IMG/VR virus record: IMGVR_UViG_3300037477_000009
Location: 11,514 to 75,513 of that record
Strand: one strand, 5' to 3'
Origin: a virus
Lineage: Duplodnaviria; Caudoviricetes
Length of the DNA stretch: 64,000 nucleotides
In this document: piece after piece, positions 2,708 to 20,411 of the stretch
Numbering within the stretch: the stretch's first letter is position 1
Layout of the letters: the number at the start of each line of letters is the position of its first letter
The notes under the pieces: generated by a model
The model's database searches: none
The model's input: only the letters and a program-made list of their open reading frames with translations
Told to the model about the DNA's origin: nothing
Translations under genes and position numbers: made by a program

Positions 2708-2708
2708 T

Positions 2709-4727
2709 TTAACTTGCTTTATAGAGTTTGAAAATTGAGTTGATGTCCTTCACTTCATTCATGTTTCTCTTTGCCATCCTATGCATATCAGCCATCAGTG
2801 TCCAGAGCGCAGCCATTGTCAGGTCATACTTCTGCGTGTCTTTAACATCGAAAGCGATCAGGTCATGTATGAGATCAGGGAAAAACATTCTGTCGGAAAA
2901 ATTGATAACATAGTCCTGCATAATTTCCAGGCCAGTGATCTTGTTCTCTTGTGTAGATGGAATACCAGGCTCTTTCTTGCCAGGTATTCTTATCAGGAAT
3001 CTGCTATAGCCACGATCTTTGAAGTAGCGAAGCAGACCAGGCTTGTTATCTTCTACCAACAATGGTGATCCGTAGAAGTGGCACTGCTTGATCATGTCCT
3101 CAAAAAATATGTTTGCTGTTTCAGGTCGTGCCAGGTACTTGCACACAAATGCTTTGTTGTATTCCTGATTCTCACCGAATGGATCATTACGCTTCAGTAC
3201 AAATGATGCAGCGTTACTCCTCCGGTAATCTTCTACAGTATCGTGATCAAATGGATCACACCCTGCTACGAACTGGTATGCATTACCAGGCTCAATGCTG
3301 CTGCCAAAGTGTGGCGAGTTATTTGTTTGCTCCGGTTTATCAAACATCCAGGCTATCTCCCATCTGCCTTTTGTGTTTCTCTGCCACTTTACTTTAGTAT
3401 CACGAATACCATTCTCCCAATAGAAATCACCACGCTCCTTATAATTCTCCATACCACTGAGTTCATCAAGGCGATCATTTAATCGAACTACATTAAAGTG
3501 ACATTGCTGGCTGCTGATCCTGAATGCTTCTTCTTCAGTGAGCGGCTCTTTTCTTATCAGATCATTTAATTCATCAGGCTCATTGATAAAAGATTTTCTA
3601 TCGGCCAGGATCGCAGCAAGTGTTTCCTTCTCTTCTGGATAACCATACACATCATAGTCACCACTGCGAGATGCTGGTATAAAAAATTTATAAAGACCAC
3701 TCTTGGTTGATCCACCTTTTTCTTTTTCAAATTGATTGCTTTGTTTCCATAAGTCTTTAAATCCAAACCGCACACCTATCTCTTCCACTGTTGTGGTCAC
3801 GATCATTTTACCGATCACTCTTCTACGCTGATCCATTAAACAATACTTCACCACCTTGTGCCTGTTAAGTATGTTCACTTCTGTCTTACCACTTTCATCA
3901 AGCAGTAATCGCTTCAGTTTACGACCATCGTATGCTTTCGGTTTGGAATCTTTGAAACCAATAGTTGATCTGAGTTCTTTTATTTTTTCTCTCCTGGTTG
4001 CAAGTTTTCCTTTCTGTGCAGTGCGGAAAAAGGAAAGCAACTCTTTGGGAGCATCTCCCTTAGTTGTGTCATATGTTGGCTTGAAGAAAAATGGTAACGC
4101 TTGAAATGGCGGTATAAGTTTAATCTGGAATACCTCTTGGCTATCGTCTTTATTTTTGGACTGGATTCCTGCGTGAGAATCTGCACAGCGACTGATGCAC
4201 TCTTCAAGTATGCACGTTGCACGATATGTTTTTCCATCACGTCTCTTCCTGATCTCGATCAGGCCAAAACATTTTGGATCGAATACACAATACTGCCAAA
4301 AAATAAAATACTCCCAATCAATGATGCGAAAATCTGGAAGGCCGATGTCCAAATTCCAGTAGTTCAAATAGTAATAATGTAAACCGGATAAATACCGCAT
4401 TTCACTCTTACCATCCTTGCCACGATTGTGAAACCATACACCATAAAGTCTACGATGCCATTCACGTTGTTTTATTTTCAGTAAGTCCTGGTGTACATAA
4501 GTTGGATTATCTTTCTTCATCTCATCCTCTTCTGCTTTCCAATCCTCCAGTTCTATCGGTAGTTCAACCGCTTCCCAATATTGTTCGGCTGCTACATTGC
4601 TGCGCTTGATAATATCAACACGCTTGATCTCACCAGTCTCCACATGGATACCATATCCCACTGGAGGAATCCAGCAAGTCAGTCCTTGTATTACTACAGT
4701 TGATCCACCTTCGATCTTGTTGAACAT
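2709..4727 (-). CDS. terL: Terminase large subunit
   Basis: Walker A-like RKRRDGKT, Walker B LLLDESGK, RNase H-like nuclease motif GCDPFD, C-terminal YDLTMA. Confidence 0.92.
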   Translation of the reverse strand: MFNKIEGGSTVVIQGLTCWIPPVGYGIHVETGEIKRVDIIKRSNVAAEQYWEAVELPIELEDWKAEEDEMKKDNPTYVHQDLLKIKQREWHRRLYGVWFHNRGKDGKSEMRYLSGLHYYYLNYWNLDIGLPDFRIIDWEYFIFWQYCVFDPKCFGLIEIRKRRDGKTYRATCILEECISRCADSHAGIQSKNKDDSQEVFQIKLIPPFQALPFFFKPTYDTTKGDAPKELLSFFRTAQKGKLATRREKIKELRSTIGFKDSKPKAYDGRKLKRLLLDESGKTEVNILNRHKVVKYCLMDQRRRVIGKMIVTTTVEEIGVRFGFKDLWKQSNQFEKEKGGSTKSGLYKFFIPASRSGDYDVYGYPEEKETLAAILADRKSFINEPDELNDLIRKEPLTEEEAFRISSQQCHFNVVRLNDRLDELSGMENYKERGDFYWENGIRDTKVKWQRNTKGRWEIAWMFDKPEQTNNSPHFGSSIEPGNAYQFVAGCDPFDHDTVEDYRRSNAASFVLKRNDPFGENQEYNKAFVCKYLARPETANIFFEDMIKQCHFYGSPLLVEDNKPGLLRYFKDRGYSRFLIRIPGKKEPGIPSTQENKITGLEIMQDYVINFSDRMFFPDLIHDLIAFDVKDTQKYDLTMAALWTLMADMHRMAKRNMNEVKDINSIFKLYKAS

Positions 4728-5379: not shown

Positions 5380-8300
5380 TTAACGCTCTGCTTTGGTTGT
5401 TATCGTGAACTCATCACCGCCATGCTTTTTCAAATCCTTCTCATGCGCAATTATCTTCAGTTTATTATTGAACTGGTTGATATATGAATCACCTACACCA
5501 AACCACCCAAGTGTATCGATCCAGAATATCAGTTGATGCATATGCTTCTCTTCATCGGTTAACTCCACTCTTTCGGTTTCTGGATGAAGGCCACCTTTCG
5601 TAACCTCATCTATCTTGCCAGTTGTTATCATCCTGCCATTACTCAGAACATCCACTATCTTATTTGGCAGGATCGCATAGAGGCCAGCATCATCCCATAC
5701 ATCCTTATCAGATAGTTTCGGAGAGAAGTACAAGTTTGGAAACTCTTTGATCGTACCACTGGCATACTGCTCTGTTGCTATCAGTCCGTATATCGCATTC
5801 ATTCCTTCCTGGAAACCTGTCTGCGTTAATGTACCCATACCACCAAAGAAGAAGTCACTGAATGTACTGGACATCCACTTCTTCATCTTCTTAGTGGTCT
5901 TGACTTCCTTGCCAGCGATAGTGATCGTTACTTCATCATCATCGTCATCTTCATCCTTGTAACCAAGCATCTTTGCAACAGCGTTTGCTGCCAGCGTAGA
6001 TAACCAGCCAGTCACAAATATTTTTATACCATTAAAAGTAAGCTGCTCTGCTACTGTTGCAGCCAGTGAGAGCGCAGCCTCTTTCGGATGTTCCCAATGA
6101 AGTATCTTCTGCATATCATTTGTCATCCGCACTCTCATGTTCACGTTGAAGGATGAGAACGGCAACATAATATTGGTCATAATTTTTTTCCATCCATTAC
6201 CGGAATCTCTGAGTATGCTACCCAAGTTGCTTGAATCATTCACGTTCTGTGATCTTGATACCATTTGTTCTGCATATGCTGCTGCTTCCTGGTTTGCATT
6301 AAGGTGTTCGGTTTGCCAGTTGACTGTGTCCAGGTTAACACCCTGCTTCTTCAGGCTCTGCATATAATATGCAAGCCAGGATGTGCGAGCAATACTTACG
6401 TCTGCTTTTACAAGTGACTTCATTGTAGCATCATGCATTTTTTCTCCGAGACGTATTGCTGCTTTGTAAACCGACATTGCGTTACCAGCAAGCACTGATC
6501 TGTCGATCTCTCCGGTATCAACCTTCCGTTTGTATCCAGCCTCTGTGCCACCACGAAGGCCAATGCCAAACTGATCAAAGAGTTCCAGCTTGTTGCTCAT
6601 CAAAAGTGCCTTATAGAATAATCCAACATCAGTACCCATATTAAATTGAGTACCTGCTCCTACACTCACATACTGCCATATCCACTGGAGAACAGAGCCA
6701 AGTGACATACGAGTCGCTTTTGCTTGCGCAGCATTAAGTGTTTTAGCAATGCTACTTCCTTGCTCATCCACCATTGGCATACGGCCTCTCTGCAACTGCA
6801 CCATCTTCTTCACCCCATCAAGCACAACATTCCGGTTGTATCTTCCACCAAACAGATCAGCTACTTCAGGATTGGCAATAAATTTTTTGAAGTGAACAAT
6901 CGCTTTGGAAGTTTCTACATCGTAGTTCGTTTCGTAAAATAATTTTGATTGCACGTTATCGAAATCAAGATTCAGCACATTACCCTTTGGCAGATTCTGT
7001 AACCTGACCTTTGCGATCTTCGTGCCAGCAGGTTGACTGCGCACACCTTTACTCATGTACGCTGCTGCAAAATCATCACGATCACGATTCTCTTCAACAC
7101 CTTTCTCACCATTGTAACCTTTGAGTGATGTTGCAGTATAGTTCTCTACGTTTTCCCAAATCCTGTTGTTATAAAGTTCAGTGTTCTCTTGCACCAGGTG
7201 CTTGCGTTTCATAAATGCATTCTGCCAGAACTCAACCAACTTGATGTTATGCGGCTCGATGCGCTTCATGTTCGCTGTTACATCAGCAGGAGTCTTTGCA
7301 TCTTTGAATAGTGTATCAACTACTCGCTGCAATACTATCCCTTCCAGTATATCTTTCTTGAACTGTGGCTCTGATTCACGCAAACGCTTTGCACTTTCTT
7401 CGATCCATCCTTTCCTGCGTTCAAACTCAGCAAGCACTTCTTCTTCTGTACCACCGAAGTTATTCATAACGTCTGCATACACTCCCCTCCGGTATCTGTT
7501 CATTGCAGAGTCAGCGTTCTTCATTCCCTTCTTCAGTTTCTCATACTCCTTGACAGTGTTTATCGTAAGCACTTTTGATTTTGCATGACCACTGTTGATA
7601 TCAAACACACCACTCATGCGCTGGAAGAACGCAGCAGCCTTTGAACTCCTGGTGATAAACTCATGTATCAACTGAGTGCTTGCAAAGTGTTTTACGTTTC
7701 TTAAAAATCTACCACTCAGATCACCGAATGAAACTTTATTATCCTTCCAGTGCTTCTGTGTTTCTTTTATTGCATCATTCACACTTGATATGATGGACAA
7801 CTCACCTGATCCAACAAAGTTTTCATTCACTGCAATATTGTTCATTGCATCAATCACCTTCGCCAGTTCAGTAGCACTTAGTTTTTCCAAGTCCATCCTC
7901 AAGTACCTGTTCATAATTTCCTGCTCTTCTTTTGTAAGATCAGGATTACTGTTACTATACTCCTGTACACCCATCTGTGCATATTCTGCTACAGACCTGA
8001 GTGCATTCATCTTATTAAACCAATCATCTTCCAAGTCCTCTTGTGCTTGCTTGATCTCAGCATCAGTACCTTTCTCCAATGAGTCGATCACCTTCTGCAT
8101 TTCTGCTGCACTCATCAGTGTTGGATTGATCTTACCTGCTGTTACCAGGTCAGCATACATATCAGCAAGCCTTGCAGCAGCAGCTTTGTCTGCTATCTTC
8201 AGTTGCTCGTTAGTATAATTGGTGATCTCAGCCAGGCTGATATTTAAGAACGGATTCTTCACACCACTGCGAGAAACCTTTACACCTTCAGCTACACCAA

Positions 8301-11300
8301 GTATTCTTGCAGCAAGATCATTGTACTGATAGATGTCCTCAACATTGGATGGACTGATGCGCAAGAAATCCTGGATCACCTGGTTAGTTGTTGCGCTATT
8401 GCGATCCTTCCTGTTCTTGATCGTGCTTCTTATTTTTTTCTTGTATGCATTTGCGCCTTGCAAATGTTTATCGTACTCCACATCATCAAGCACCTTCTCC
8501 AGATAGTCAGTATACTTCAGCATACTGTACGGACTTCTTACGTCATTGAGTTTACTCACTACTGTTTTCAGCAGGTTTGCCTTTACAACACCAGTAAATA
8601 CTTTGCGATCCTCCGCATCCTTCAGCATTGCAGTGATCTCTTTGTGTATCTCTTCTTTTACTGCATCAACTTTTTTCGCATTGCTTGCACCTGTTCCTTG
8701 CAGTTGACCTTTTACTTTTGCTCTGATGTCATTAAGTTTCTGCTGGAGAACTGCATCACGAACACCACCACCTTTACTGAATTTAGCCTGGCCGCTTTGT
8801 ACCTGTGCTATTACATCAGCAGTTATATTTATTGAATGCTGCCTTGAGTTGTTGTTGTACACAGTTCGCATAGCATCCATAGCCTCTGCCTTACTTTTAA
8901 ATCTTCCTTGCACCTGCCCATTCATTTTTGCTATCACCCAATTCCTACCATACCCATCAGGCGCAGTTTCGTAAACATTAAGTTTCCCTCCCAACTGAAT
9001 TTCAGTTGTTCCTGTTTCCTGACCAACAAGTTTACTTGCTGCACCACCAAGCATACCTGGCTTGCCTTCTGCTGGCACTCCATAGAAACCTTCCATTCCT
9101 TCTTTGCGTGGCAGTGATGTGCCTTCATCTTCAGTCTGCATTCTTTTCCAAATGCGATCAGTGAGTTTATTTAATTCATCCGTATTATGACTCCTGGATA
9201 GATTACGATCCACTGCTTCAAACAACTCATCTCTTGTCGTTATACGGATACCCTCTTCTTCCAGTCTGTTTGTTCTTAACGCATCTTCATTACCTTCAAA
9301 CGCATCAGCATCTGTCTGTTCATTTATAGCAACTGTCCACTCACCAGGTGCTGGCGATACTTCTATATCTTCTGGCTTTATTTTCCATTCGGCAGCGATA
9401 CGCTTGATATCAGACTCTGTAACTTCACGATCATACCATCCCAAATCTCTGTGCCTTGTGCCTCTTGCAGAGCGTGGTGCTTCCACACCTTCTTTCACCT
9501 TGATCTTATATCCTTTTGGCTTCATCCTGGTATTCCAATGAATTTCTTCTGATCCCCATCTATTGAATTGTTGCGTACCAGTTGTCCATGCAAGTTTATC
9601 TACTCCTTGCTTCACTGCTTCCTTCAGTGCTATCTTTAATGCAAGTTTCACCCAATGAGATGTCTCGGTTACATATGGCGCAGGAACAATTTGCGATGTA
9701 GGCTTTTCATCTTCCCGAAGTTGATTCACAAAGGCAAGCCTTCGATCCCTTGTTTGGTACATCTTATCATGCGCTACCTGCAATTCTTTATTACCAGCCT
9801 TTAGTTCACTGGCAATATTCGTAACCTTGCCTGTTTCTCTTATCTCACGCATCATCTTATTCACTACACCTTCAGCCTTGCGCTCTGCTTTCCACAACTC
9901 TTCAATTTTTTCATTTATCGCTGCTTTCTCTTCGGCTGTCTTTTTTACTTTCGGTTTCAAGAAACCTTCCTTCCTACCTGATTGCGCCCAATCACTTTGC
10001 ACCTCTTCCAGAAACAGAATCTTTTTACCATTGGCATCAGTGCGTGTACTCATGCGCAGGTGAAGCACCAGGTTTGGCTCACCTCTAAAGTGTGGTGGCC
10101 TGTATTGTAATTTATCTCCTTCCTCTTCTTTTTCCATTAGTGCTTTCAACTCTTTGTCCTCTGCCACTGTTCGCCTTGTAGTAGGTATGTTCAATAAATC
10201 CTGCATCCTTGTGCCTTCTTCATTGGTCAGTGATGGCTTCACTGGCAGCGTTACCAGTATCTCCTTATAATCCTCCTTCTCTCCTGGTAATTGATATTGC
10301 GAATAATGTGTATTAGTATCGGTATCATTGATGCTTGCTGGATAGTTAATAGCACCAGTTTCTATTTGCAGTCTTGAATTAATAGCATCTCCATCATCAT
10401 CTATCAATGTAAACCCTGCATCAAACGCAGCAAGTGCTTCTCGTTCATTTTGCACAGATGGCATTTCCAGATCACTCAACTCTTTTTCCTTTATTGTGAT
10501 TGGATTCTCTTTAAGAAATTTTCTTATCTCATCCCTTGTCACACTTCCTTGTTGTGCAGATAACCAGGCAGTGAGTCCAGTCCATTTTGCTTCTTCCTTG
10601 TTGCCAAGTTTTTCCATCCAGTGTTTCACTGGCTGCTTATCAACTTTCGATTCCAGTAATGTTTGTTCAAGTGGTGAATAGAAACCATTCACCACATCAG
10701 CCATGATTGATTTACCTGGTGCTGCTTCACCTTTGCTGAACTTCGCTTGTGACACTGGCTCTCGATACATACTTTCCTTCGTAGAAAAATCTTTATTCTT
10801 TCCTTTGTTCTCTACGAAACCAAACCGCTTATAGAATTCAGTAAGCCTTGCAACAGATGTTCCACCGAAGTCGGTTGATGGAGTTGCAACAATGCGCTTA
10901 TTATTTTCATCAGCATACTCAGTAATATCTTGCATGGCCGCAGTACCAACACCAGTGCCTCTGTCTGATTTAGGAACTTCTATTCTGGACAACGTAAGAT
11001 CGCCTTTATCCAAACTTCCTATTAGATCAACTATGATACCATGCTCTGCTTCCAATGACTTTGAAAACTCAGATGGTGATTCGCCTTTACTATACTTTCC
11101 TTTTGATTCAACCAATGGCTTCCATCCTTCACTTGTTTTTATTTCAATTTTTGCAGGGTTTATAGTTTCTCTGATAAAGTCATCAACATCGGCCTCTGTG
11201 CCAGATACCTCCGATGAAGGAAATCTCAAAAGAACATCACCATATTTTGAACTTTTAGGTTCTTCACTCATCACATATGTTCTTCCACTGACATCCTCTA

Positions 11301-14300
11301 TAGGTATGCCGAGTTCGTTTAACTCATCCTCAGACAACTCAGTCACATCAACATACTCACCATCTCTTCCTATCACCATTGACGATATCATTCCCTCATC
11401 ATCCACTAAGGATTGTCCTAATGAAGTTGGCTGTAACCCTGTTTCGGTTATTGATCCAATATGTTCTTTTTGAGTTTCGTGATACAGGTAGTCTCCTGCT
11501 TTTTCCATAGCAGCCTGATCTCCCTTACTGAACTTCGGTTTTGCTTGTTGAGTAGAAGAAAATAATTCAGCAGCAAGTTTTGCAGCGTTCTCAATTATTG
11601 GTTTTGATTTATCATACTCAACACCACTTTCTTTTTGTTTTGAAAGCCAGCCGAACATTGCATTAAAGAGATCACGCATCAGGTCAACGAAACTGGTTGC
11701 CTTTGAATCACGAATCGCTTTACTTGTTTTGCGGATGTCATCCAGGTTATCAGCAAATACATCACTGGCATACTCACGAAACTTTGGATTGATATTCAGT
11801 TCTGCCATGAACTCACTGAAATTATCCAAGCCTTGATTAAGGTCTGATCTATGCAGGAAGCCTGGCTTACCTTTCTTCGCAGCGATGTACTCATACATAT
11901 CTTGCAGTGCATTGTATGCAGTAGTTCCTTTTGCTTTCTCTGCTGCTGCACTATCAATGGTAAGGAAGTGCCTGAACTCATGCATCCCATTGTAGTACGA
12001 ATCACCAATGTCCTGCACTTGCAGCAGACCACCTTTCTTACCACCGAGTGGATGATATAGTCCACCATACTCACCGCCTGGTACTTTCTCCAGATCGGCA
12101 TACGCATCAAGTCTTATGATATTAAAGTTCGGATCAGCCTTGATCATCTTCAGCATATCGGTATACTCACCATCGTGCGCTATAAGTTTATCGATGAAGT
12201 CTGTTGCAGTATCACCTTCCTTAACACCAAGTTGTTTCAGTGTTGCTGGCTTACTACTTAAACTGAACTTTGCCTTTGCCTCTTTTTCTTTCTTCGTCAT
12301 TTTCGCTTCCTTCTTTGCATCATCTTCTTCCTGGCCTTCATACTTTGCATCTGAATCGATGTGATCTGCAAACCGGATCACCTTAGAATTACTAATGGTC
12401 GGGAACACTTTCATAAAGTCCTTGCGCTTCACGATCTCATTTGTTTCCAGATCAACTGTGTGTGCCTTCCAGTTCAATCTGTCTTGCAGTATATGTAACC
12501 TAACCTTCGCATTCTTATCAGTGCCACGAATTACCCATTCGTATGAATCATGCTGGCCAGGTATCTTGATGTGTTCAACAGGTGAGTCAAGTTCAAGCAC
12601 TGCGTACACTTGCTGCGATTCTGTATTGCGTAGCAGTGGCTCATTGAGTACAGCAGCAAAACCTTCCCGTAATTTTGTTGCTGACAATCCGCCGCTTTTT
12701 AATTTGGTATCACCAACCTCTTCAAAGAAGGCAACCATTTGGAGTGCCGCCTCTTCATCAGTTACGGCTTCGGCTATTTGATCAAATATGTAATCATTCA
12801 CTTCTGTGCGCTCCGGAAACGTGCTTACATTCAGATCATACCAACTTTCCATAATAGTATGCATCTCTTCCAATGGTGTGCTGGCAGGTATCACTGGTAA
12901 GTTCTTTGGCTCTTTAATGGCTTTCACCAATCCTTCATCACTCGTTCTGCCATCATATTTTTTATCTCCAGCCTCCGCAAGTCTTTTTCCAGCAGCCTTG
13001 CGATCATCTCTCAATTGATTTAATGCTCTGCTTATCGATGTCACTACTTGCTTTTCTGACAAGTGCATCTTCTCATCAAATGCTTTTGATGTTAAGATGC
13101 GAAGCATACCTGTTGATCCTGCCGAAGAGTTTAATACTTTATGCGTAGTTGCTGATACCAGTGCCATCCTTACTGTACCATTTTCGCTTTCGCCTCTCTT
13201 CTTACTCAACTTCATTTGTGCATTAAGAAGATTTGCAAATTGCGCTGCTGCTGATTCAGTTGTTGCTGCCCAAAAATTTCCTTCAGGATGGAACTTGATC
13301 ACATAAAATATTCCACCACTTCCTTCCATCAACACTTCACCATTCTTAAGCAACCTTCCAGTGAATGCATGATCAGGCATTGTAAGCACTGCTGTCTTGC
13401 TTGCAAAATTTGACAGTGTTTTATCTTCAGTTACAAATCCATCCTTTTTTAACTGAGCAAATTCTTCAGAGTCCTTCGCCAACTCATATGTCAATCCATG
13501 TGCAGGATCATGCACATTATCAATTGAGAATTTACCTCTTGGCTTTCCGTTTGATCCAAGTAGCGCAGGTGCAAATGCGATCTGCCTTCCATTGTGAATA
13601 GCATCAGAAAACTTTTGTGCTATTTCATAGATGCCATCATTTTCGCTGAACTCAATATTCGTAGGCAACCTGAACTTCAAGCCTGTCATCCCAATGATCC
13701 TGTTGATCAGGTCTTTTATTTTATTAACAGTAGACTTTGATAGTTTGTCGAGATTGATCTCACGATTTCCAACAAGTGCCAGGAACTGAACAACAGTTTC
13801 TTCATGCACCTTTGCTTCACCCTGATCTTCATATTTCAATCCATGCCTTATCGCTTCTTCAATGCCTGGTACATCATCAAGCATCTTAACTACATCCTCA
13901 TACATTCCCTTGATAATCTCAGGTGAATCTTTTGTGAGTGCAGTGAGAAGCGGATGTGCGCCTTCATGGAATATTGTTTCACTGGTTGCTTTTGTTAGAT
14001 TGATGTGTATTTGATTCGTGCCATCTTTACTAATGTAAAATCCCTGAGACAGTGATTCTTCTTTTGTACCATCGGCCTGATTCACTACACCATCCGTATA
14101 CGATGCCTGGCTGTAGTGTGCAGTCACAGTAAGATTAGGCATTCTCTTGCTCCATGCTTTTATAATACTTGCTACACCATCAAGGAATCCACCGAATACA
14201 CCACCATGCTTCTCAGCAGCCTTCCTTAGTTTGGCAATATCTTTTCCAGAGAACGTAACTGATGGCTGTGTTTTATTTGTGCCTGGAGGTTTCAACCATT

Positions 14301-17300
14301 CATCACCTGCCATTGGTGCAGATTCTTTTTCGGTTTCGGTTTCAGGCTTTTGCCATTTTTCCCTAATCTCTTTCTCTGCTTCTTCAATAGTCATCTTTCC
14401 AGAAGGATCGGTATCCGCATATGTTTCTGCTTCCGCTAATGCTTCTTTTAATGTTGGCTTCTGTAATATCTCGCTGCGAATTTGTGCAGGTGAAATCTCT
14501 TTTACTTTGCCAGATTCAGATTCTTTTTCAGTCTCCTTATCTTTTTCCTTTTGTGGCTCAGGTTTTTTTTCAGTTTCCTTCTCAGTTTCTTTTTCTGTTT
14601 CAGGTGCTTTCTCCTTCTCGGTTTCTTTCTCAGACTCCTTTTCTTTTTCAGTTTCTGTTGCAGGTGCTGGCTTTTCAACAATTGGATTTGGTACTTCCAT
14701 CTCCACTTCTCTTTCTACTTCATCATACACTTCATTGAATGCACCATCAGCAATTTCACCCATTGCATCAACGTGCATCTTTATCGCCAGGTCAAGTGCT
14801 AACTCAGGATTTTCTATAGTGATCAGCTTACCATCTCTTGTTTGTACAGTAACAGATTTCACATTTCCATTTTCATCCAGTGTAACAGGACTCTCATCGC
14901 CATCAGGTAATTTCAGATCACGATCATTGATCGCCTTCTCACCAACAGCAGCAACTTTATTTCCCTTGCCATCAATAACAAAGTAATGGCCATCCTCAAC
15001 CTTCAGGACTCCTGTTGCTTTTGTTCCATTGGGGAGAGTGACTGTGACTCTTGATCCTGTTGCTTGTTGGAGCGCAGGTTCGACTTTGATCTTAGTTTTG
15101 TTAGTACGGCCAGTTGGTACTTTTTCGGTAACCTTGCCAGTTTTAGTTGTTGTCGTAAATTCATAATTCTGTATTTTTTCTATTAGCGGTTCTATCAAGT
15201 GTGCCGCATTTGGATTTTTTTCTAACGCATCGTACAGTTCATTCTCTGCTGCTTTTAACTCATGCTCGTTTATATATTCAGCATTGTTCACTCTGTCAAC
15301 CACACCTTGTGTTGTATCGCTGACCTTGTGAGTAGGATCATACCATACCTGCCCTACTTTTGTTTTCGCACCAGGTGCTGTTGCCTGTTGTGCAGGTGCT
15401 GCTTGCGTTTTAGGTGCAGGATATTTTGAATTAATCTCATTCCACTTTTCCAACTTCGCTTCGCTATTTGCCAGTGCTTGCTTCGCCATTTCGTTACCAG
15501 GATCATGCAGCAAGGTTTCCTTCGCAAACTTTACATTGTTCTCAAAGAATTTTTTTGGATTGGCAAGAAACTCTTGCGCCTGTTTGACCTTCCACTTGGA
15601 ATCGCTATTCAAATCTTCATAATAACTATCAAAGTCAAACGCATCTTGCAGTTCTTTATCTCTTTTAGCTGCAAGCATCTCAGGTGTAACACCCTGTTCT
15701 TTTTCATCTTTGTTCGGTATTGGCATTGGTAAACGAGTGATCACTTCAGAACCTTTTTCTCTTGCTGCCTTTCTTGCTGCCCTTGCTTCCTTCAATTCTT
15801 TATCGGTCTGCTCAAGTATTTCCTGAGACTTCCCTCTCTTACCGAATGTGTGTAATTGAAAATTTCCTTTCTTATACTCATCAAGGAACTTCGGATTCTG
15901 CAATGCTGCTTCTGATTCACTCACTGATAAAACATATTGTTCGCCACTCGGATAAGTAAGAACAACATAATCACCTTTACCTTCTTTAACGAACTTCACC
16001 ATGTTGTCACCGATCTCTTTCGCTTTTTCTTCTGCTGCTTGTTTTAATCCAGGATCAGTTTGTGCTGCTGCCTGGCGAAGTGCATCTTGTTTTTGGAATG
16101 CCATTGAAGCATAGACTTTTTGCTGACCAGGTGTAAGTCCATATTTTTTCCCATTGGTTATTAATTGCTCTGAATGCTTCAGTGTGGCGGCCATTGATTC
16201 TGCTTCCTCCTGATTGATCACGCCACCACCAAACAGATGTGCAACGTATGCCTCTGCAAATGATTTTCCTCTGCGCTGCATGATGTCGAATACGAATTGA
16301 TCTCTCTGACCAGGCGCAACATTTTTGAAATCATTCTTCAGCATAAATGTTTTCACCTGCTTCTCAGTTTCCGCTTCCTCTCTCATGTGAGTCATCAAGT
16401 GACCACCACTTCCCATTAAAAACATTGGTGCAATATTCATCAGTGTGTGTTCTGCCCGATCCCAAGTCATAAGTTTGTAACCTTCCTGATATGGCTGGTC
16501 ATTTCTTATTGCTTGTTCAAATACATCCTGATGAAACTCTTGCGGAAACTCACCGACTAGTTCTTCTATACCACCCCAAAACAATCTCTTTCCAAGTGAT
16601 CCGGTAGTTAATCTGGCTGCTCTTGCTGATATATTTGCAATCTGTTCTGCTTTTAAAAATGGTGCGCCTTCAAGCATATATGCCCACATCAAATTAACCT
16701 GGCTATCGAATGTTCGCTTACCTGCTCTGTTTGCTTTTAATGCATCACCGCCACTCTCAGCGAAAATATCATCACGCATTCTTACTGCCATGTCACCTGT
16801 CTCCACCATCCATGCTGTAAGACCACCAGCTACTGCTGTCAACGCTGCTGGCGCACCCATACCACCAGTAGCGAATGTTACTGCTGCCGTTGCTGCCATA
16901 CTTGGTAGCATAAAGCCTGCGATATTACCTGTTGCCTTTGCGAGTTTATTCAGATCAAGATAATCTCTCCAGGAATTCAATTCAGTCCTACCAGTCTGAA
17001 TTGAATTCGCAAAATAATCTGCTGCCACTACACCAGTATCAAAATTTAAATTTGATGACCATGATCTTACAACACCAGCCATTGACTTGGCTGTTTGCCT
17101 GAATAAGTTTAGTGAAGGATTATAGGCAACACTATCCAATGCGTCTCTGAAATCCTTACCACCTGTATCAACATCTTTTAATGCCTGGCCATACACCTTC
17201 TGTATTTTTGCTTGCAGTTCAGGACTCGGCTGGAACTTATATTTTTTTTGCGCCTCTGCTAATTCTGCCCTTCCCACCTTTTCGATCTGTGCTGCTTGCA

Positions 17301-18648
17301 ATCTATACTTCGCATTATACTTTGTATTGATCTCATTTTGTTTGTGCAAGAGTTGATTGTTCAGTGCATCGAGTTGAGCATTTGTATTTTTATACAACGC
17401 TTCCGCTTGCTCTTTACTCGTTACAAGTTTTGCCGCTTGCTGGTAATCTGATTTTATTTTACTGGCCGTATCGGTTAATGTTTGATGAAATGCTGTGCCT
17501 TCCGCATTCGCTTGCTTGGCGAGTTCAGTAGATACAACATTGGCTTTTATTACCGCCTTCTGTCTTATTTCCTCACCTTCTTTAAATCCTGCATTGTACT
17601 CCGCATCACGCTCTTCTTCCATCGTCTTTCCATAGGTCTTAGTGTATATCTCATCAAATTTTTTATTAACCTCTGGCTGAATAATTTTAAACGCAACTGT
17701 TGCCATTGCTTCATTATACAGAAGTGTCTTATATGTTCCTTCATCACTCAGTCCATATTTCTTGGCTTGCGCTTTTGCGTATTCACTTATCTTGAATTCA
17801 TCAGGCACTCTATGAACTCCTTCTGCGATCCTTGTATACGCATTGAAATATTCTCCAATCGGCTCAAGGTCTTTTTTCACTGTTTCGTGAACAGCCTCTC
17901 TTGCATCATCTGCCTTCTTTACTTTCGCAGCATCCTTCGCTACTCGTTCAGCCTTACGTCTCTGCTGCTCCTGTATGTATGCGTTCCTGTCAACCTTGAT
18001 TGAACTTCCAAAACCTGCGCCTCCATCCGGAGGTAAATTTGTCTCTCCTTTGGAAACAGAAATATATTTATCAGTTTGTTTCTGCGCCCATTTTATATTG
18101 CGATCATAATCGATCACACCCTGTTCACCGCTAGTTATATTTCCATCTACATCACGCTCCGGTGTGAGTCCTTCCATCTGCGCTTTCTCATACTGCGCTG
18201 GCTTAAGATCAATTTCTTCTTTTGGTTGCACTACTGGTTTGGTAGGCATACTCACCATCTTACCTGATGGAGATGGTTGCTGCTTACCCGAAAGAATAGT
18301 AGTCATATAATCATGCTCAAACGGATCAGTTGTTGTTGCCAACTGTGGTTGCGCAACTTGTGCAGGTGCTTTTGTTTTTTGCGCTGGCACTACTGCTGGT
18401 GTTGCTATTGGTGGCTGTGTCTCGGCAGGTGGTTTTGGTGTGACATTGTTATTCATCCAATCCTTCCCCATCTTTCTTTCAACAGCACGATCAAGAGTAT
18501 ATCCCTGATCGCTCACCAGTGCATTCACAACTTTCAATCGCTTCAATGCTTCGCCATCGCCTTTGAGTTGTGTATACTTTTTTAGCAGCACACCATCATC
18601 TGCGCCTTTATTCATCTCTGCCAACAATTTTTCTAACCAGTCATTCAT
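5380..18648 (-). CDS. Giant (4422 aa) polyvalent virion/ejection protein: two zincin HExxH peptidase domains, ADP-ribosyltransferase-like domain, GNAT domain, LPD-type domain
   Basis: HEGAH (13954-13968); HEFRH (11968-11982); YLYHET...GLQP...TYV...LLRFP ART-like segment; TLSRIEVPKSDRGTGVGT...FYKRFGF GNAT motif; FYSPLEQ...FLEEVQSDW LPD-like segment; E/K/T-rich linker near 14510-14680. Confidence 0.8.
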   Translation of the reverse strand: MNDWLEKLLAEMNKGADDGVLLKKYTQLKGDGEALKRLKVVNALVSDQGYTLDRAVERKMGKDWMNNNVTPKPPAETQPPIATPAVVPAQKTKAPAQVAQPQLATTTDPFEHDYMTTILSGKQQPSPSGKMVSMPTKPVVQPKEEIDLKPAQYEKAQMEGLTPERDVDGNITSGEQGVIDYDRNIKWAQKQTDKYISVSKGETNLPPDGGAGFGSSIKVDRNAYIQEQQRRKAERVAKDAAKVKKADDAREAVHETVKKDLEPIGEYFNAYTRIAEGVHRVPDEFKISEYAKAQAKKYGLSDEGTYKTLLYNEAMATVAFKIIQPEVNKKFDEIYTKTYGKTMEEERDAEYNAGFKEGEEIRQKAVIKANVVSTELAKQANAEGTAFHQTLTDTASKIKSDYQQAAKLVTSKEQAEALYKNTNAQLDALNNQLLHKQNEINTKYNAKYRLQAAQIEKVGRAELAEAQKKYKFQPSPELQAKIQKVYGQALKDVDTGGKDFRDALDSVAYNPSLNLFRQTAKSMAGVVRSWSSNLNFDTGVVAADYFANSIQTGRTELNSWRDYLDLNKLAKATGNIAGFMLPSMAATAAVTFATGGMGAPAALTAVAGGLTAWMVETGDMAVRMRDDIFAESGGDALKANRAGKRTFDSQVNLMWAYMLEGAPFLKAEQIANISARAARLTTGSLGKRLFWGGIEELVGEFPQEFHQDVFEQAIRNDQPYQEGYKLMTWDRAEHTLMNIAPMFLMGSGGHLMTHMREEAETEKQVKTFMLKNDFKNVAPGQRDQFVFDIMQRRGKSFAEAYVAHLFGGGVINQEEAESMAATLKHSEQLITNGKKYGLTPGQQKVYASMAFQKQDALRQAAAQTDPGLKQAAEEKAKEIGDNMVKFVKEGKGDYVVLTYPSGEQYVLSVSESEAALQNPKFLDEYKKGNFQLHTFGKRGKSQEILEQTDKELKEARAARKAAREKGSEVITRLPMPIPNKDEKEQGVTPEMLAAKRDKELQDAFDFDSYYEDLNSDSKWKVKQAQEFLANPKKFFENNVKFAKETLLHDPGNEMAKQALANSEAKLEKWNEINSKYPAPKTQAAPAQQATAPGAKTKVGQVWYDPTHKVSDTTQGVVDRVNNAEYINEHELKAAENELYDALEKNPNAAHLIEPLIEKIQNYEFTTTTKTGKVTEKVPTGRTNKTKIKVEPALQQATGSRVTVTLPNGTKATGVLKVEDGHYFVIDGKGNKVAAVGEKAINDRDLKLPDGDESPVTLDENGNVKSVTVQTRDGKLITIENPELALDLAIKMHVDAMGEIADGAFNEVYDEVEREVEMEVPNPIVEKPAPATETEKEKESEKETEKEKAPETEKETEKETEKKPEPQKEKDKETEKESESGKVKEISPAQIRSEILQKPTLKEALAEAETYADTDPSGKMTIEEAEKEIREKWQKPETETEKESAPMAGDEWLKPPGTNKTQPSVTFSGKDIAKLRKAAEKHGGVFGGFLDGVASIIKAWSKRMPNLTVTAHYSQASYTDGVVNQADGTKEESLSQGFYISKDGTNQIHINLTKATSETIFHEGAHPLLTALTKDSPEIIKGMYEDVVKMLDDVPGIEEAIRHGLKYEDQGEAKVHEETVVQFLALVGNREINLDKLSKSTVNKIKDLINRIIGMTGLKFRLPTNIEFSENDGIYEIAQKFSDAIHNGRQIAFAPALLGSNGKPRGKFSIDNVHDPAHGLTYELAKDSEEFAQLKKDGFVTEDKTLSNFASKTAVLTMPDHAFTGRLLKNGEVLMEGSGGIFYVIKFHPEGNFWAATTESAAAQFANLLNAQMKLSKKRGESENGTVRMALVSATTHKVLNSSAGSTGMLRILTSKAFDEKMHLSEKQVVTSISRALNQLRDDRKAAGKRLAEAGDKKYDGRTSDEGLVKAIKEPKNLPVIPASTPLEEMHTIMESWYDLNVSTFPERTEVNDYIFDQIAEAVTDEEAALQMVAFFEEVGDTKLKSGGLSATKLREGFAAVLNEPLLRNTESQQVYAVLELDSPVEHIKIPGQHDSYEWVIRGTDKNAKVRLHILQDRLNWKAHTVDLETNEIVKRKDFMKVFPTISNSKVIRFADHIDSDAKYEGQEEDDAKKEAKMTKKEKEAKAKFSLSSKPATLKQLGVKEGDTATDFIDKLIAHDGEYTDMLKMIKADPNFNIIRLDAYADLEKVPGGEYGGLYHPLGGKKGGLLQVQDIGDSYYNGMHEFRHFLTIDSAAAEKAKGTTAYNALQDMYEYIAAKKGKPGFLHRSDLNQGLDNFSEFMAELNINPKFREYASDVFADNLDDIRKTSKAIRDSKATSFVDLMRDLFNAMFGWLSKQKESGVEYDKSKPIIENAAKLAAELFSSTQQAKPKFSKGDQAAMEKAGDYLYHETQKEHIGSITETGLQPTSLGQSLVDDEGMISSMVIGRDGEYVDVTELSEDELNELGIPIEDVSGRTYVMSEEPKSSKYGDVLLRFPSSEVSGTEADVDDFIRETINPAKIEIKTSEGWKPLVESKGKYSKGESPSEFSKSLEAEHGIIVDLIGSLDKGDLTLSRIEVPKSDRGTGVGTAAMQDITEYADENNKRIVATPSTDFGGTSVARLTEFYKRFGFVENKGKNKDFSTKESMYREPVSQAKFSKGEAAPGKSIMADVVNGFYSPLEQTLLESKVDKQPVKHWMEKLGNKEEAKWTGLTAWLSAQQGSVTRDEIRKFLKENPITIKEKELSDLEMPSVQNEREALAAFDAGFTLIDDDGDAINSRLQIETGAINYPASINDTDTNTHYSQYQLPGEKEDYKEILVTLPVKPSLTNEEGTRMQDLLNIPTTRRTVAEDKELKALMEKEEEGDKLQYRPPHFRGEPNLVLHLRMSTRTDANGKKILFLEEVQSDWAQSGRKEGFLKPKVKKTAEEKAAINEKIEELWKAERKAEGVVNKMMREIRETGKVTNIASELKAGNKELQVAHDKMYQTRDRRLAFVNQLREDEKPTSQIVPAPYVTETSHWVKLALKIALKEAVKQGVDKLAWTTGTQQFNRWGSEEIHWNTRMKPKGYKIKVKEGVEAPRSARGTRHRDLGWYDREVTESDIKRIAAEWKIKPEDIEVSPAPGEWTVAINEQTDADAFEGNEDALRTNRLEEEGIRITTRDELFEAVDRNLSRSHNTDELNKLTDRIWKRMQTEDEGTSLPRKEGMEGFYGVPAEGKPGMLGGAASKLVGQETGTTEIQLGGKLNVYETAPDGYGRNWVIAKMNGQVQGRFKSKAEAMDAMRTVYNNNSRQHSINITADVIAQVQSGQAKFSKGGGVRDAVLQQKLNDIRAKVKGQLQGTGASNAKKVDAVKEEIHKEITAMLKDAEDRKVFTGVVKANLLKTVVSKLNDVRSPYSMLKYTDYLEKVLDDVEYDKHLQGANAYKKKIRSTIKNRKDRNSATTNQVIQDFLRISPSNVEDIYQYNDLAARILGVAEGVKVSRSGVKNPFLNISLAEITNYTNEQLKIADKAAAARLADMYADLVTAGKINPTLMSAAEMQKVIDSLEKGTDAEIKQAQEDLEDDWFNKMNALRSVAEYAQMGVQEYSNSNPDLTKEEQEIMNRYLRMDLEKLSATELAKVIDAMNNIAVNENFVGSGELSIISSVNDAIKETQKHWKDNKVSFGDLSGRFLRNVKHFASTQLIHEFITRSSKAAAFFQRMSGVFDINSGHAKSKVLTINTVKEYEKLKKGMKNADSAMNRYRRGVYADVMNNFGGTEEEVLAEFERRKGWIEESAKRLRESEPQFKKDILEGIVLQRVVDTLFKDAKTPADVTANMKRIEPHNIKLVEFWQNAFMKRKHLVQENTELYNNRIWENVENYTATSLKGYNGEKGVEENRDRDDFAAAYMSKGVRSQPAGTKIAKVRLQNLPKGNVLNLDFDNVQSKLFYETNYDVETSKAIVHFKKFIANPEVADLFGGRYNRNVVLDGVKKMVQLQRGRMPMVDEQGSSIAKTLNAAQAKATRMSLGSVLQWIWQYVSVGAGTQFNMGTDVGLFYKALLMSNKLELFDQFGIGLRGGTEAGYKRKVDTGEIDRSVLAGNAMSVYKAAIRLGEKMHDATMKSLVKADVSIARTSWLAYYMQSLKKQGVNLDTVNWQTEHLNANQEAAAYAEQMVSRSQNVNDSSNLGSILRDSGNGWKKIMTNIMLPFSSFNVNMRVRMTNDMQKILHWEHPKEAALSLAATVAEQLTFNGIKIFVTGWLSTLAANAVAKMLGYKDEDDDDDEVTITIAGKEVKTTKKMKKWMSSTFSDFFFGGMGTLTQTGFQEGMNAIYGLIATEQYASGTIKEFPNLYFSPKLSDKDVWDDAGLYAILPNKIVDVLSNGRMITTGKIDEVTKGGLHPETERVELTDEEKHMHQLIFWIDTLGWFGVGDSYINQFNNKLKIIAHEKDLKKHGGDEFTITTKAER

Positions 18649-18659
18649 GTGATCCGTTT

Positions 18660-20411
18660 TTAATCTTCATAATGATTTTGAAGCATTGTGTCAAACTGCT
18701 CCTGGCTTATTACGAAATCATCTTTGCGTTTTCCTTCCGATGTATAATGAACTTTATATTTTCCGTTTTTCAAATGCTCGACAAGATTCACTTGCACCTT
18801 CGTCATCTTCGGACTCTTTTCTGTTCCTATGTTCAATCCGAAATAATCATCCATGTATGGTTGCAGTTGCGCTACCTTACCTGTCTTTTTAAAATCGTCA
18901 TACGCATCTTCATATGCGATCCGGTAACCTTCAGACTTCGCCTCTGGATTCTCACCAGGAAACATCTCCTGGTATAATTCATTAAACACTTCCATTGGCA
19001 TACCATTGGCCGTTACTCTTTTTGCAAGCCAGTCATAACGCTTCTCTGGCTTGATCATAACTTTTTTATCTCCGGCATTCTCCTGGTAATACATCTGTTT
19101 ATTGTTTTTATTTATGTATACTCCATGAAGTGCCTGTGTGGATGCGCCACCTTTCTCACCCTGCTCTTTCATTGACATCATATTACCACCAGGAAAATAT
19201 TGATCAATCTTCGCAAACCCATCTTTGTCGTATGCAGAAGCAGGTGGCTCTAATTTTCCTGATCCGTATTGCATGAATGCATAACCAGCAGTGGCTTTTG
19301 CTTTTTTCAACATCGATGCTTTCTCTTTTTCTTCAGGCGAGTTTACAGTTACATGAATACCTGGTGTGGCTTGCAGACTTGTATCAACTACTCTCGCAAC
19401 TTTACTACCAACTGCTTTTTTCTCCAGCAGATCGAGTGCCACAGCCTTCATCTTCTGTTGACCTTCTGCTGTGGATTCATCAATTGGCTTTCCACCATTC
19501 CTTATTCTTGTTTCAACGATCAGTGCGGCTTTGGTGCGTGGATCAGAGAAGTATTGATTGTACGCTTCATCACTAACTGTTTTAACTGTTTTGGTCTTAT
19601 CAGTTAAATCTTCTTCCTCCTGAAACTTGAATCGCAACTTCGGTGACATATTACCACGATCATCTTTATCAAAATAAGTTTCCTGCCCAAGCAACATATC
19701 TACCGAATACTGCTCCTTCCTTCTCTTCATTTGCTTTCCCTTCACATCGTAATCCGCATATGAATCGACAACCTTGTTTGTTAATTTTTGTTTCGCCATG
19801 TAATCCTCCAGGTCTTTATGAACTACCTGTAAATCCTTACCCATCTTCACAAAGCGTTCAGGATTTTTGGCGATCACCTCATACACACTCATTGGTTTTA
19901 TATCATCAGGATTTCTCATTGAATGAGTTCCTTTCTCTTCATCGTAATTCTCAAATGATCCACGATACATTGCCCTCTTCACCTTATCCATGTCCAGGCT
20001 CTCTGATCCACCGAATGCTTTCAAATCTTCATCAATCACTTTCACTGCATTCTTTGTTATGTTTGAATACTTACCGATCTCCATCATACCAGGTCTTACC
20101 CTGCTTTGTATTTCTGCTGTTGAGTATCCTGCTTTTTTCATTGCAGCAGCAGACTGAACAATTCCCTGCAAACCCAAATCGATTTGCTGATCCTGTCCTG
20201 CTATACCTGTATACAGTTTACTTGGATCACTTATCTTATCCATGAAGTCCTCATACTGCGCACGATCCTTACGTTGCAGATCAGCTTGCTCTAATGCCAT
20301 CTGTCTTGCCATCAGTTCTTTCTTCTCATTCTTTGCAGCACCTTGTTGCCATATCTGCAATGAAGTAGTATCCTGCGGAAGTACACCTGGTGCTGTTGAT
20401 TGTCCTGGCAT
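18660..20411 (-). CDS. Putative internal virion (ejection) protein
   Basis: 583 aa, helical, K/D/E-rich; between pilot-like gene and giant protein. Confidence 0.55.
   Translation of the reverse strand: MPGQSTAPGVLPQDTTSLQIWQQGAAKNEKKELMARQMALEQADLQRKDRAQYEDFMDKISDPSKLYTGIAGQDQQIDLGLQGIVQSAAAMKKAGYSTAEIQSRVRPGMMEIGKYSNITKNAVKVIDEDLKAFGGSESLDMDKVKRAMYRGSFENYDEEKGTHSMRNPDDIKPMSVYEVIAKNPERFVKMGKDLQVVHKDLEDYMAKQKLTNKVVDSYADYDVKGKQMKRRKEQYSVDMLLGQETYFDKDDRGNMSPKLRFKFQEEEDLTDKTKTVKTVSDEAYNQYFSDPRTKAALIVETRIRNGGKPIDESTAEGQQKMKAVALDLLEKKAVGSKVARVVDTSLQATPGIHVTVNSPEEKEKASMLKKAKATAGYAFMQYGSGKLEPPASAYDKDGFAKIDQYFPGGNMMSMKEQGEKGGASTQALHGVYINKNNKQMYYQENAGDKKVMIKPEKRYDWLAKRVTANGMPMEVFNELYQEMFPGENPEAKSEGYRIAYEDAYDDFKKTGKVAQLQPYMDDYFGLNIGTEKSPKMTKVQVNLVEHLKNGKYKVHYTSEGKRKDDFVISQEQFDTMLQNHYED

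Follow-up and report, generated by a model that had tools for sequence, protein, structure and literature searches.

Polyvalent proteins of phages and conjugative elements, as described by Iyer, Burroughs, Anand, de Souza and Aravind (2017, J Bacteriol, PMC5512222), combine 2-15 unrelated globular domains in one chain. Among these domains is a zincin-like metallopeptidase (MPTase) with a three-stranded sheet, a helix carrying HExxH and a second helix with a Glu, for which anthrax lethal factor is the best profile match. It was proposed to release the other domains, while no junction or cleavage motif was given and the word "linker" is absent from the text (PMC5512222). The present analysis deals with a giant protein of this kind, P0001, which is encoded as a single open reading frame (ORF) of 4,422 codons on the minus strand of a 64,000-nucleotide stretch of phage DNA (Table 1). 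This stretch, referred to as the window, comprises positions 11,514 to 75,513 of the IMG/VR record IMGVR_UViG_3300037477_000009, a 75,513-base virus record rated as complete by CheckV. A first-pass annotation of the window had described six short K[FY]S peptides which divide the protein into effector modules, and had interpreted them as autoproteolysis sites and/or recombination seams. The evidence assembled here, drawn from sequence comparisons and structure models, favours a signal at the peptide level, most likely the sites of a polyprotein protease, over DNA recombination seams.

Like the published polyvalent proteins, to which known kind it belongs, P0001 strings together zincin MPTase, ADP-ribosyltransferase (ART), GNAT and so-called LPD-type domains and is encoded among virion genes. 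Unlike those proteins as published, the modules of its array are marked by a defined peptide, of which relatives possess their own versions. The polyproteins of RNA viruses are cut at mapped sites by Cys or Ser proteases such as picornavirus 3C, potyvirus NIa and coronavirus Mpro. P0001 resembles them in the repetition of a peptide at the junctions, in the presence of a protease in the same chain and in a site that differs between lineages as if co-evolving, whereas it is a putative virion protein of a DNA phage with metalloprotease domains, whose sites are predicted. In polymorphic toxins such as CdiA, the VENN motif is conserved at the DNA level across alleles and marks one border per protein. 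The peptide of the window likewise is short and stands at the border of a constant region and exchangeable modules, but it recurs at each module, varies from lineage to lineage and lacks conservation at the DNA level. Compared to anthrax lethal factor and the PPEP peptidases (MEROPS M34), the second zincin of P0001 comprises the HExxH and downstream Glu ligands and finds its closest structural matches there at middling Z, while it shows no significant sequence match to solved structures. A last comparison concerns the fused giant virion proteins of crAss-like phages, which are packaged in the virion and were described as "likely cleaved into individual components", without a motif being proposed (Drobysheva et al., bioRxiv 10.1101/2020.03.07.982082). 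Similar to these, P0001 is encoded beside morphogenesis genes and has a zincin-like domain, but no RNA polymerase module was recognised in it, with no dedicated search made.

The question of how a single chain carrying as many as fifteen enzymes is activated dates back to the description of these proteins in 2017. Autoproteolysis was proposed without a site or motif, and no description of the junction peptide or of its lineage-specific versions was found in the searched literature. A defined junction peptide makes the question of autoproteolysis directly testable. Polyvalent proteins occur widely among phages and conjugative elements, and the peptide offers a practical guide for dividing unannotated giant phage proteins into functional units. 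On the reading offered here, a small gene placed between two junction peptides would become deliverable anti-host cargo. The peptide also marks the unnamed families M1 and M5a as well as the Tpt1-like M3 as self-contained units worth their own study.

K[FY]S peptides at the module borders

In P0001, a first zincin-like region (Z1) is followed by M1, M2 (the second zincin), M3 (ART fold), M4 (GNAT), M5 (divided into M5a and M5b) and a conserved C-terminal region. The tripeptide K[FY]S was found seven times (aa 1679, 1706, 2127, 2372, 2518, 2636 and 3289), compared to 1.5 expected occurrences. Six of these sites read [AGP]-K-[FY]-S, with 0.29 expected, and four read K[FY]SKG, with 0.01 expected; both observed counts were reached in none of 2000 shuffles. 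In a motif-agnostic control, any 5-mer present three times at a spacing of more than 30 aa was reached in 13 of 1000 shuffles. All six coordinates read in the first-pass annotation agree with the translation. QKFSDA at aa 1679, the remaining site, falls within a conserved and probably helical part of the first zincin region and does not form a linker. Throughout the six reading frames of the window, [AGP]K[FY]S is confined to P0001, apart from one GKYSNIT (window 20064-20075) in the neighbouring 583-aa protein (ORF 18660-20411, minus strand), which is probably due to chance. Around the six sites, Gly, Ser, Ala, Lys, Pro and Gln are over-represented, and K-[FY]-S is retained at every one of them while its neighbouring residues have diverged.

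Judged by homology, all six sites lie between evolutionary modules. At five of them, homology to other proteins starts or stops within few residues, while the sixth (aa 1706) belongs to an indel-rich linker between Z1 and M1, which always travel together. In a BLAST comparison of P0001 with 43 giant homologs (E < 1e-5), the ends of the high-scoring segment pairs (HSPs) pile up at aa 2518, 2636 and 3289; matches to the GNAT module span aa 2520-2551 to 2631-2640, and those to the next domain begin at aa 2651-2656. A phmmer search with aa 2127-2517 against 1.84 billion representatives yielded 58 proteins in two clean classes, one of which covers M2 (query positions 6-12 to 239-253) and the other M3 (252-261 to 382-390), with KFS located between them at 246-248. 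In the AlphaFold2 (AF2) model of aa 2100-2400, the predicted local distance difference test (pLDDT) exceeds 90 in the M2 core (2130-2366) and amounts to 40-59 in both junction peptides. The coincidence of the peptides with module boundaries, as claimed in the first-pass annotation, is backed by the BLAST ends, the phmmer split and the pLDDT dips.

Furthermore, free-standing M3 and GNAT proteins stop where the junctions begin. Most of the M3 hits of the phmmer search are complete proteins of 123-170 aa. Dozens of free-standing GNATs comprise just the inter-junction length, are 50-66% identical to M4 and carry GNAT Pfam domains; they stop 1-4 residues past MYREP, where the window reads VSQA-KFSKG. 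The junction at aa 1706 lies in the only indel-rich stretch of the Z1-M1 alignment, and Z1-M1 is otherwise whole in five homologs. At its place, a polar residue followed by Phe or Tyr is kept in three of the five (elemoE RFQ, P0003 QFN, P0002 QYR).

Junction peptides of related giant proteins

Two related phages, L002 and L007, encode giants that share the C-terminal 1,100 residues with P0001. The L002 protein (L002:7553-13501, IMGVR_UViG_3300023107_000002) has a length of 1,982 aa and comprises neither module array nor HExxH nor junction peptide, and it shows the constant frame. The L007 protein (L007:2-13657, Ga0154020_10000197), with at least 4,552 aa, shares the Z1-type zincin, while its middle part is unrelated; no Pfam hit at all was obtained for this giant, and its N-terminal 135-700 aa match the N-termini of M2-family giants. 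Its junction reads [ED]FS[KR]KK and is present four times (aa 1964, 2734, 3048 and 3245). Nine HSPs end at aa 1957-1970 around the first of these sites, and a further one stops at aa 2726, shortly ahead of the second at aa 2734. The F-S-[KR] core is thus kept between the sister phages around different cargo. The modular variation of homologs at these points, by which the first-pass annotation had suggested judging its proposal, is found here, since L002 is without an array and L007 has other modules between FS[KR] junctions.

At the corresponding borders, further polyvalent proteins repeat a junction peptide that is specific to them. Each giant homolog was screened for recurring 4-mers, irrespective of where homology borders lie, and in eleven other giants such a peptide was found 3-5 times, at distances of the size of a domain. 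These peptides are QFSL[AT] and QPSLM in P0002, SQAS.GERK in P0003, FATK in P0005, TLNQS in P0013, PSFSR in P0019, R[FY]S[LS] in P0025, KFAL[SP] in P0030, P0032 and P0035, YSLK in P0034, VLESR in P0036 and [YF]SQFG in P0042. A BLAST HSP end lies within 5 aa at 26 of the 41 repeated-peptide sites, compared to 9.8 at randomly placed positions, for which 5000 trials never exceeded 22. HSP ends cluster from -5 to +4 of the peptide start, and HSP starts cluster 0-20 residues past the peptide end. As a negative control, 34 M2-family giants of fixed architecture showed no convincing repeated peptide. A repeat scan with a reduced alphabet was too noisy to serve as a statistic, since 14 of 49 shuffled proteins scored. 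Every repeat-bearing giant has an HExxH zincin, except for P0021, which repeats KLHKK three times and has no HExxH.

In at least eight lineages, the GNAT module has the host protein's own peptide on either side. Besides KYSKG/KFSKG in the window, the brackets include PSFSR/PSFSR in P0019, TLNQS/TLNQS in P0013 and pairs of QPSLME in P0002, KFAL in P0030, YSLK in P0034 and FATK in P0005. For a flank test free of hand-picking, 80 IMG/VR loci encoding this GNAT were collected. In 54 of them the module forms part of a longer ORF, and removal of redundancy reduced these 54 to 42. The upstream and downstream flanks of one and the same GNAT gave a significantly better best 6-residue match than flanks taken from separate proteins (Mann-Whitney p = 1e-5), and the same-module similarity lay above the cross-protein 95th percentile in 14 and above the 99th in 7 of the 42.

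Proposed processing of P0001

On balance, we lean towards reading P0001 as a polyprotein that would be cut at the K[FY]S-type peptides, most likely by a built-in zincin. It would consist of a constant N-terminal part with Z1, a constant C-terminal part and, between the two, an array of M1, the M2 zincin, the ART-fold module, GNAT and M5. Each module would be the equivalent of a whole small free-standing protein, spliced in frame through a short exposed peptide of the form [AGP]-K-[FY]-S-[KLI]-[GSD]. A protease, most likely one of the two zincins in the chain, would recognise this peptide and cut at it. Since zincins such as thermolysin and lethal factor prefer a hydrophobic residue at P1' (lethal factor also basic residues upstream), a cut between K and F/Y-S, directly before the aromatic residue, is suggested. 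Most peptides of the other lineages also include one hydrophobic residue as candidate P1'. The modules would be freed with near-native ends, either in the capsid or after ejection into the host, and the released products would amount to about 46 kDa for M1, 27 kDa for M2, 16 kDa for the ART module, 13 kDa for GNAT and 72 kDa for M5. For this phage, we infer both that the protein is packaged and that it is cut, together with the protease responsible, the bond it would hydrolyse and the timing. Packaging and injection are suggested by the gene position, the annotation of the Elemovirus homolog as "structural protein" and the analogy to gp47 of phi24B.

The same short peptide stands at the junctions between the functional units of P0001, as in a polyprotein. 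The resemblance to cleavage sites arises since the peptide is homogenised within each protein, specific for the lineage, exposed, located just past the module C-terminus and found together with a protease domain in the same chain. Two other cleavage mechanisms were considered. No protease of the S78 (HK97-type), S77 (T4-type) or ClpP-type families was detected in the 75.5-kb genome, which leaves an explanation by a prohead protease unsupported. Self-cleavage of the Nup98/PIDD type (H-F-S) takes place at a Phe-Ser bond downstream of one conserved fold, with a preceding His and the Ser as nucleophile. It was rejected for P0001, since the upstream domain differs per site (zincin, M1, zincin, ART, GNAT and M5) and Lys instead of His precedes the Phe; the KFAL peptides of P0030, P0032 and P0035, which contain no Ser, likewise speak against it.

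Alternative explanations

The codons of the six sites read AAR TTC/TAT AGY/TCA, mostly followed by AAR GGN, with synonymous differences at Lys, Ser and Gly, and the longest identity between any two junction DNAs amounts to about 8 bases. Phe is encoded by TTC at all five Phe sites of the window, while Ser is encoded by AGY at five of the six sites in the window and by TCN at all four sites in L007. Since the codons differ synonymously and L007 switches the Ser codon family while keeping F-S-[KR], selection appears to act on the peptide, and the junction DNA is too short and too varied for a homologous seam. The first-pass annotation had proposed such a seam as well, in which case the peptide would be the translated DNA joint for cassette swaps, without any function of its own and in a protein that is left uncut. 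Relatives indeed exchange modules exactly at these points, and the shared codon choices within one gene suggest that junction DNA was copied within the gene. However, about 8 bases are too short a stretch for homologous recombination. Since other lineages have other junction peptides at the same module, the seam is not carried along with the cassette, and a donor would have no homology to the recipient there. We therefore consider recombination seams unlikely, and a seam of the VENN type was rejected, since the junction is not conserved as DNA over an exchange-capable length and relatives use other peptides. The linkers may nevertheless have been copied along when cassettes were gained, and they could have remained passive, being without specific function and simply undiverged so far. 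The uniform codon family within each gene would fit this explanation, as would the composition of the flanks, which is that of ordinary linkers. Against it, K-[FY]-S is unchanged at six sites with diverged surroundings, synonymous changes have built up without loss of the peptide, and the pattern recurs independently in many lineages with different peptides. Passive linkers are the least probable of the alternatives weighed here.

The peptides could also be cleavage sites of a host protease or of another, unrecognised phage protease, while the zincins would act on host targets or peptidoglycan. Effector roles of the MPTase are listed as an alternative by Iyer et al., and a peptidoglycan role is proposed in the phi24B preprint for the metallopeptidase of a virion polyvalent protein; in addition, P0021 shows that a peptide can be repeated in a giant without HExxH. 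This explanation is nonetheless improbable given the outcome of the search for S78, S77 and ClpP-type proteases. Zincin and repeated peptide co-occur in nearly all giants examined and are both missing in L002, and the lineage-specific motifs fit poorly with one conserved host protease. With a very low probability, the peptides are uncut address or docking tags for capsid loading or tail threading, comparable to a capsid targeting sequence. Their exposed position, few residues ahead of each module, would suit such a role, but a separate address is needless for modules that are fused in one chain, the motif comprises only 3-6 residues, and the capsid targeting sequence of T4 is itself removed by a protease.

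Several observations weigh against a polyprotein that is cut at its junctions. The motif patterns behind the shuffling statistics were defined after inspection of the data, the near-uniform Ser codon family per protein fits linker copying by descent as well as selection, and shared linker composition within a protein could explain part of the flank similarity around GNAT. Moreover, elemoE, P0012 and P0009 comprise the same modules and a zincin without an obvious repeated peptide, and therefore the link between the Z1-type zincin and the "FS" core, which is seen in the window, L007, P0002 and P0003, is only a hint. Not every border is marked, as the domain border at aa 3031 has no junction peptide, and the junction at aa 1706 splits Z1-M1, a two-domain unit that is conserved as such. 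Since the one border is unmarked and the other lies within a conserved pair, the peptide marks modules and not every domain. Finally, N4 vRNAP, ArdC and TraC1 carry an MPTase and are yet transferred uncut (Iyer et al. 2017, PMC5512222).

Cleavage of P0001 at its K[FY]S peptides could be extended, tentatively and with less confidence than we place in the reading of P0001 itself, to polyvalent proteins in general. These may be polyproteins under a "junction code", in which the peptide of each lineage would co-evolve with the built-in zincin and a cassette would become functional once placed between two copies. K[FY]S and [ED]FS[KR]KK would then represent two dialects for the same Z1-type zincin.

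Modules of P0001 and genomic setting

The P0001 gene lies downstream of tail/virion-protein genes; next come a 207-aa ORF and the genes for the terminase large subunit and the portal. A close relative at the DNA level was not found in the phage collection by megablast, and searches of viral contigs with the N-terminal part or the M3 alignment as query likewise yielded no close relative. At the protein level, parts of P0001 match giant "structural proteins" of Flavobacterium Elemovirus phages as well as giant proteins of Klebsiella, Vibrio and Bacillus phages. Most of the 43 homologs carry PF18760, PF18857, PF18823, PF18796 or PF18834, and the Pfam domains found on them are ART-PolyVal, LPD1/37/38 and InPase. 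P0001 itself scored below every Pfam LPD cut-off, and scans of the whole protein and ten segments with Pfam, NCBIfam and PHROGs gave almost nothing above cut-off. It comprises at least eight separable modules, each with an independent homolog set, in a phage context. The Pfam domains of its homologs place P0001 among the polyvalent proteins as defined by Iyer et al. 2017, in agreement with the reference to such proteins in the first-pass annotation. The release of domains by zincin peptidases, attributed to that paper in the first-pass annotation, is indeed proposed in it.

Table 1. Features of the P0001 gene in the window, with residue numbers of P0001 and the basis of each assignment
Feature	Residues	Window position	Strand	Basis
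Giant ORF P0001, phage polyvalent protein		5380..18648	-	Translation as one ORF; gene context and homologs with polyvalent-protein Pfam domains
Z1, first zincin-like MPTase	1496-1700	13549..14163	-	HEGAH at aa 1561; conserved Glu ~45 aa downstream
Junction 1, RGKFSID, variable-length linker Z1/M1	1704-1710	13519..13539	-	K[FY]S codons 13525-13533; indels in all five homolog alignments
M1, conserved unnamed domain	1711-2086	12391..13518	-	Always follows Z1-type zincin in homologs
Junction 2, AKAKFSLS, after ~40-aa Lys/Glu-rich spacer	2124-2131	12256..12279	-	K[FY]S codons 12262-12270; M2 homology begins 5-11 aa later; pLDDT 44-59
M2, second zincin	2130-2366	11551..12261	-	HEFRH at aa 2223; AF2 core pLDDT >90
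Junction 3, KPKFSKG	2370-2376	11521..11541	-	K[FY]S codons 11527-11535; M2 matches stop and M3 matches start on its two sides; pLDDT 40-45
M3, predicted ART-fold module	2377-2515	11104..11520	-	Equals free-standing 123-170-aa proteins; AF2 pLDDT 88
Junction 4, KGKYSKG	2516-2522	11083..11103	-	K[FY]S codons 11089-11097; 9 HSP ends within 25 aa; free-standing M3 homologs stop at junction start
M4, predicted GNAT acetyltransferase module	2523-2633	10750..11082	-	Equals free-standing 108-120-aa proteins
Junction 5, QAKFSKG	2634-2640	10729..10749	-	K[FY]S codons 10735-10743; 38 HSP ends within 25 aa
M5a, widespread polyvalent-protein-associated domain	2651-3031	9556..10698	-	Motifs YSQYQLPGE and EEVQSDWAQSGRK; in most of 43 giants
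M5b	3032-3286	8791..9555	-	Travels with M5a in only some homologs; no peptide between the two
Junction 6, QAKFSKG	3287-3293	8770..8790	-	K[FY]S codons 8776-8784; L002 giant homology begins at aa 3293, the residue after KFSK
Conserved C-terminal region	3293-4422	5383..8772	-	Common to giants of two related phages, 38-39% identity

For Z1, the HExxH and the downstream Glu are conserved in all five homologs, and the assignment as a zincin is a prediction from these residues; matches were found neither in Pfam nor among the sequences of solved structures. M1 has many homologs in giant phage proteins and no match in Pfam, NCBIfam or ESM Atlas. In M2, the residues H2223, E2224, H2227, E2279 and E2283 are invariant among 29 sequences. 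The model shows strands at model residues 80-84, 97-99 and 109-113, followed by the helix 118-133 with HExxH, and this layout of three strands and an HExxH helix is that of the polyvalent MPTases. The best structural matches were the catalytic domain of anthrax lethal factor with Z 8.1 (169 aligned residues) and PPEP-2/3 with Z 6.5-6.6, values in the middling range, and Foldseek returned the same lethal factor/PPEP theme with weak E-values. The sequence search against solved structures gave noise only. M2 also belongs to a separate family of giants (P0046-P0101) with 1,700-4,400 aa and a fixed architecture, in which LLGxxPLAL is conserved before the domain and DNAxxLATxLFFGG after it. The M2 copy in P0001 has been acquired as a cassette with a KFS junction on each side.

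The AF2 model of M3 predicts an ADP-ribosyltransferase fold similar to Tpt1/KptA. In VIA-align, Tpt1 (7yw2) reached Z 8.6 with a root mean square deviation of 2.8 over 89 aligned residues and KptA (9ld3) Z 8.1, and nearly all of the 50 listed structural matches were ARTs. Foldseek gave Tpt1 with E 0.04, and the NCBIfam Tpt1 model matched weakly (E 0.041), while no Pfam model matched the M3 of the window. The catalytic residue set of ARTs is R-H-R-R in Tpt1 and H-Y-E or R-S-E in others; in the family alignment of M3, H16 is present in at least 90% of the sequences and R82 and R101 are invariant, and these may be candidates for such a set. A pattern scan detected no member of the M3 family in IMG/VR. 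MAFFT misaligned a set in which M3 and GNAT homologs were pooled, and this alignment was left out of the folding. The M3 relatives P0069-P0102 are free-standing proteins of ~150 aa with the motifs YLYHET, SYGQS, RTY, LLRFP and DVD and a Tpt1-like ART fold.

M4 scored just under the Pfam cut-offs for PF13508 (22.9 compared to 27 bits) and PF13673 (20.1 compared to 23.6 bits). M5a is the domain most widely shared among the giant homologs. No Pfam model matched it, and ESM Atlas gave only unnamed viral clusters under 0.9. The M5a-matching region of P0010 lies between LPD37 and LPD38, outside both. P0003 and P0011 align through M5b, while most other homologs stop at aa 3031.

In the first-pass annotation, the segments between the peptides had been given, in order, as a domain of about 415 aa, a second HExxH zincin, an ART-like, a GNAT and an LPD-type domain. 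This order is correct, and three of the assignments hold: the zincin by the invariant motif and the lethal-factor/PPEP-like fold of the M2 model, the ART-like domain by the M3 model and its top matches, and GNAT as a prediction from the Pfam domains of the M4 homologs. "LPD-type" can be kept as a descriptive label only, since aa 2639-3288 gave no Pfam hit, LPD models included. The division itself needs correction in two places, as two domains or more make up the last segment (aa 2636-3288), and Z1 and the 415-aa domain travel together across aa 1706.

Ten residues past KYSKG, at the start of the GNAT module, a second F-S-K is present as EFSK (aa 2526-2529, window 11062-11073). P0002 has retained it (IEFSK). 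It is similar to the EFSKKK junction of L007 and may be an older junction that came in with the module. The 4,422-aa protein contains zero cysteines. Its N-terminal half comprises, upstream of Z1, an acidic low-complexity repeat of ETEKE/KETEKE units (window about 14500-14700, aa about 1320-1380).

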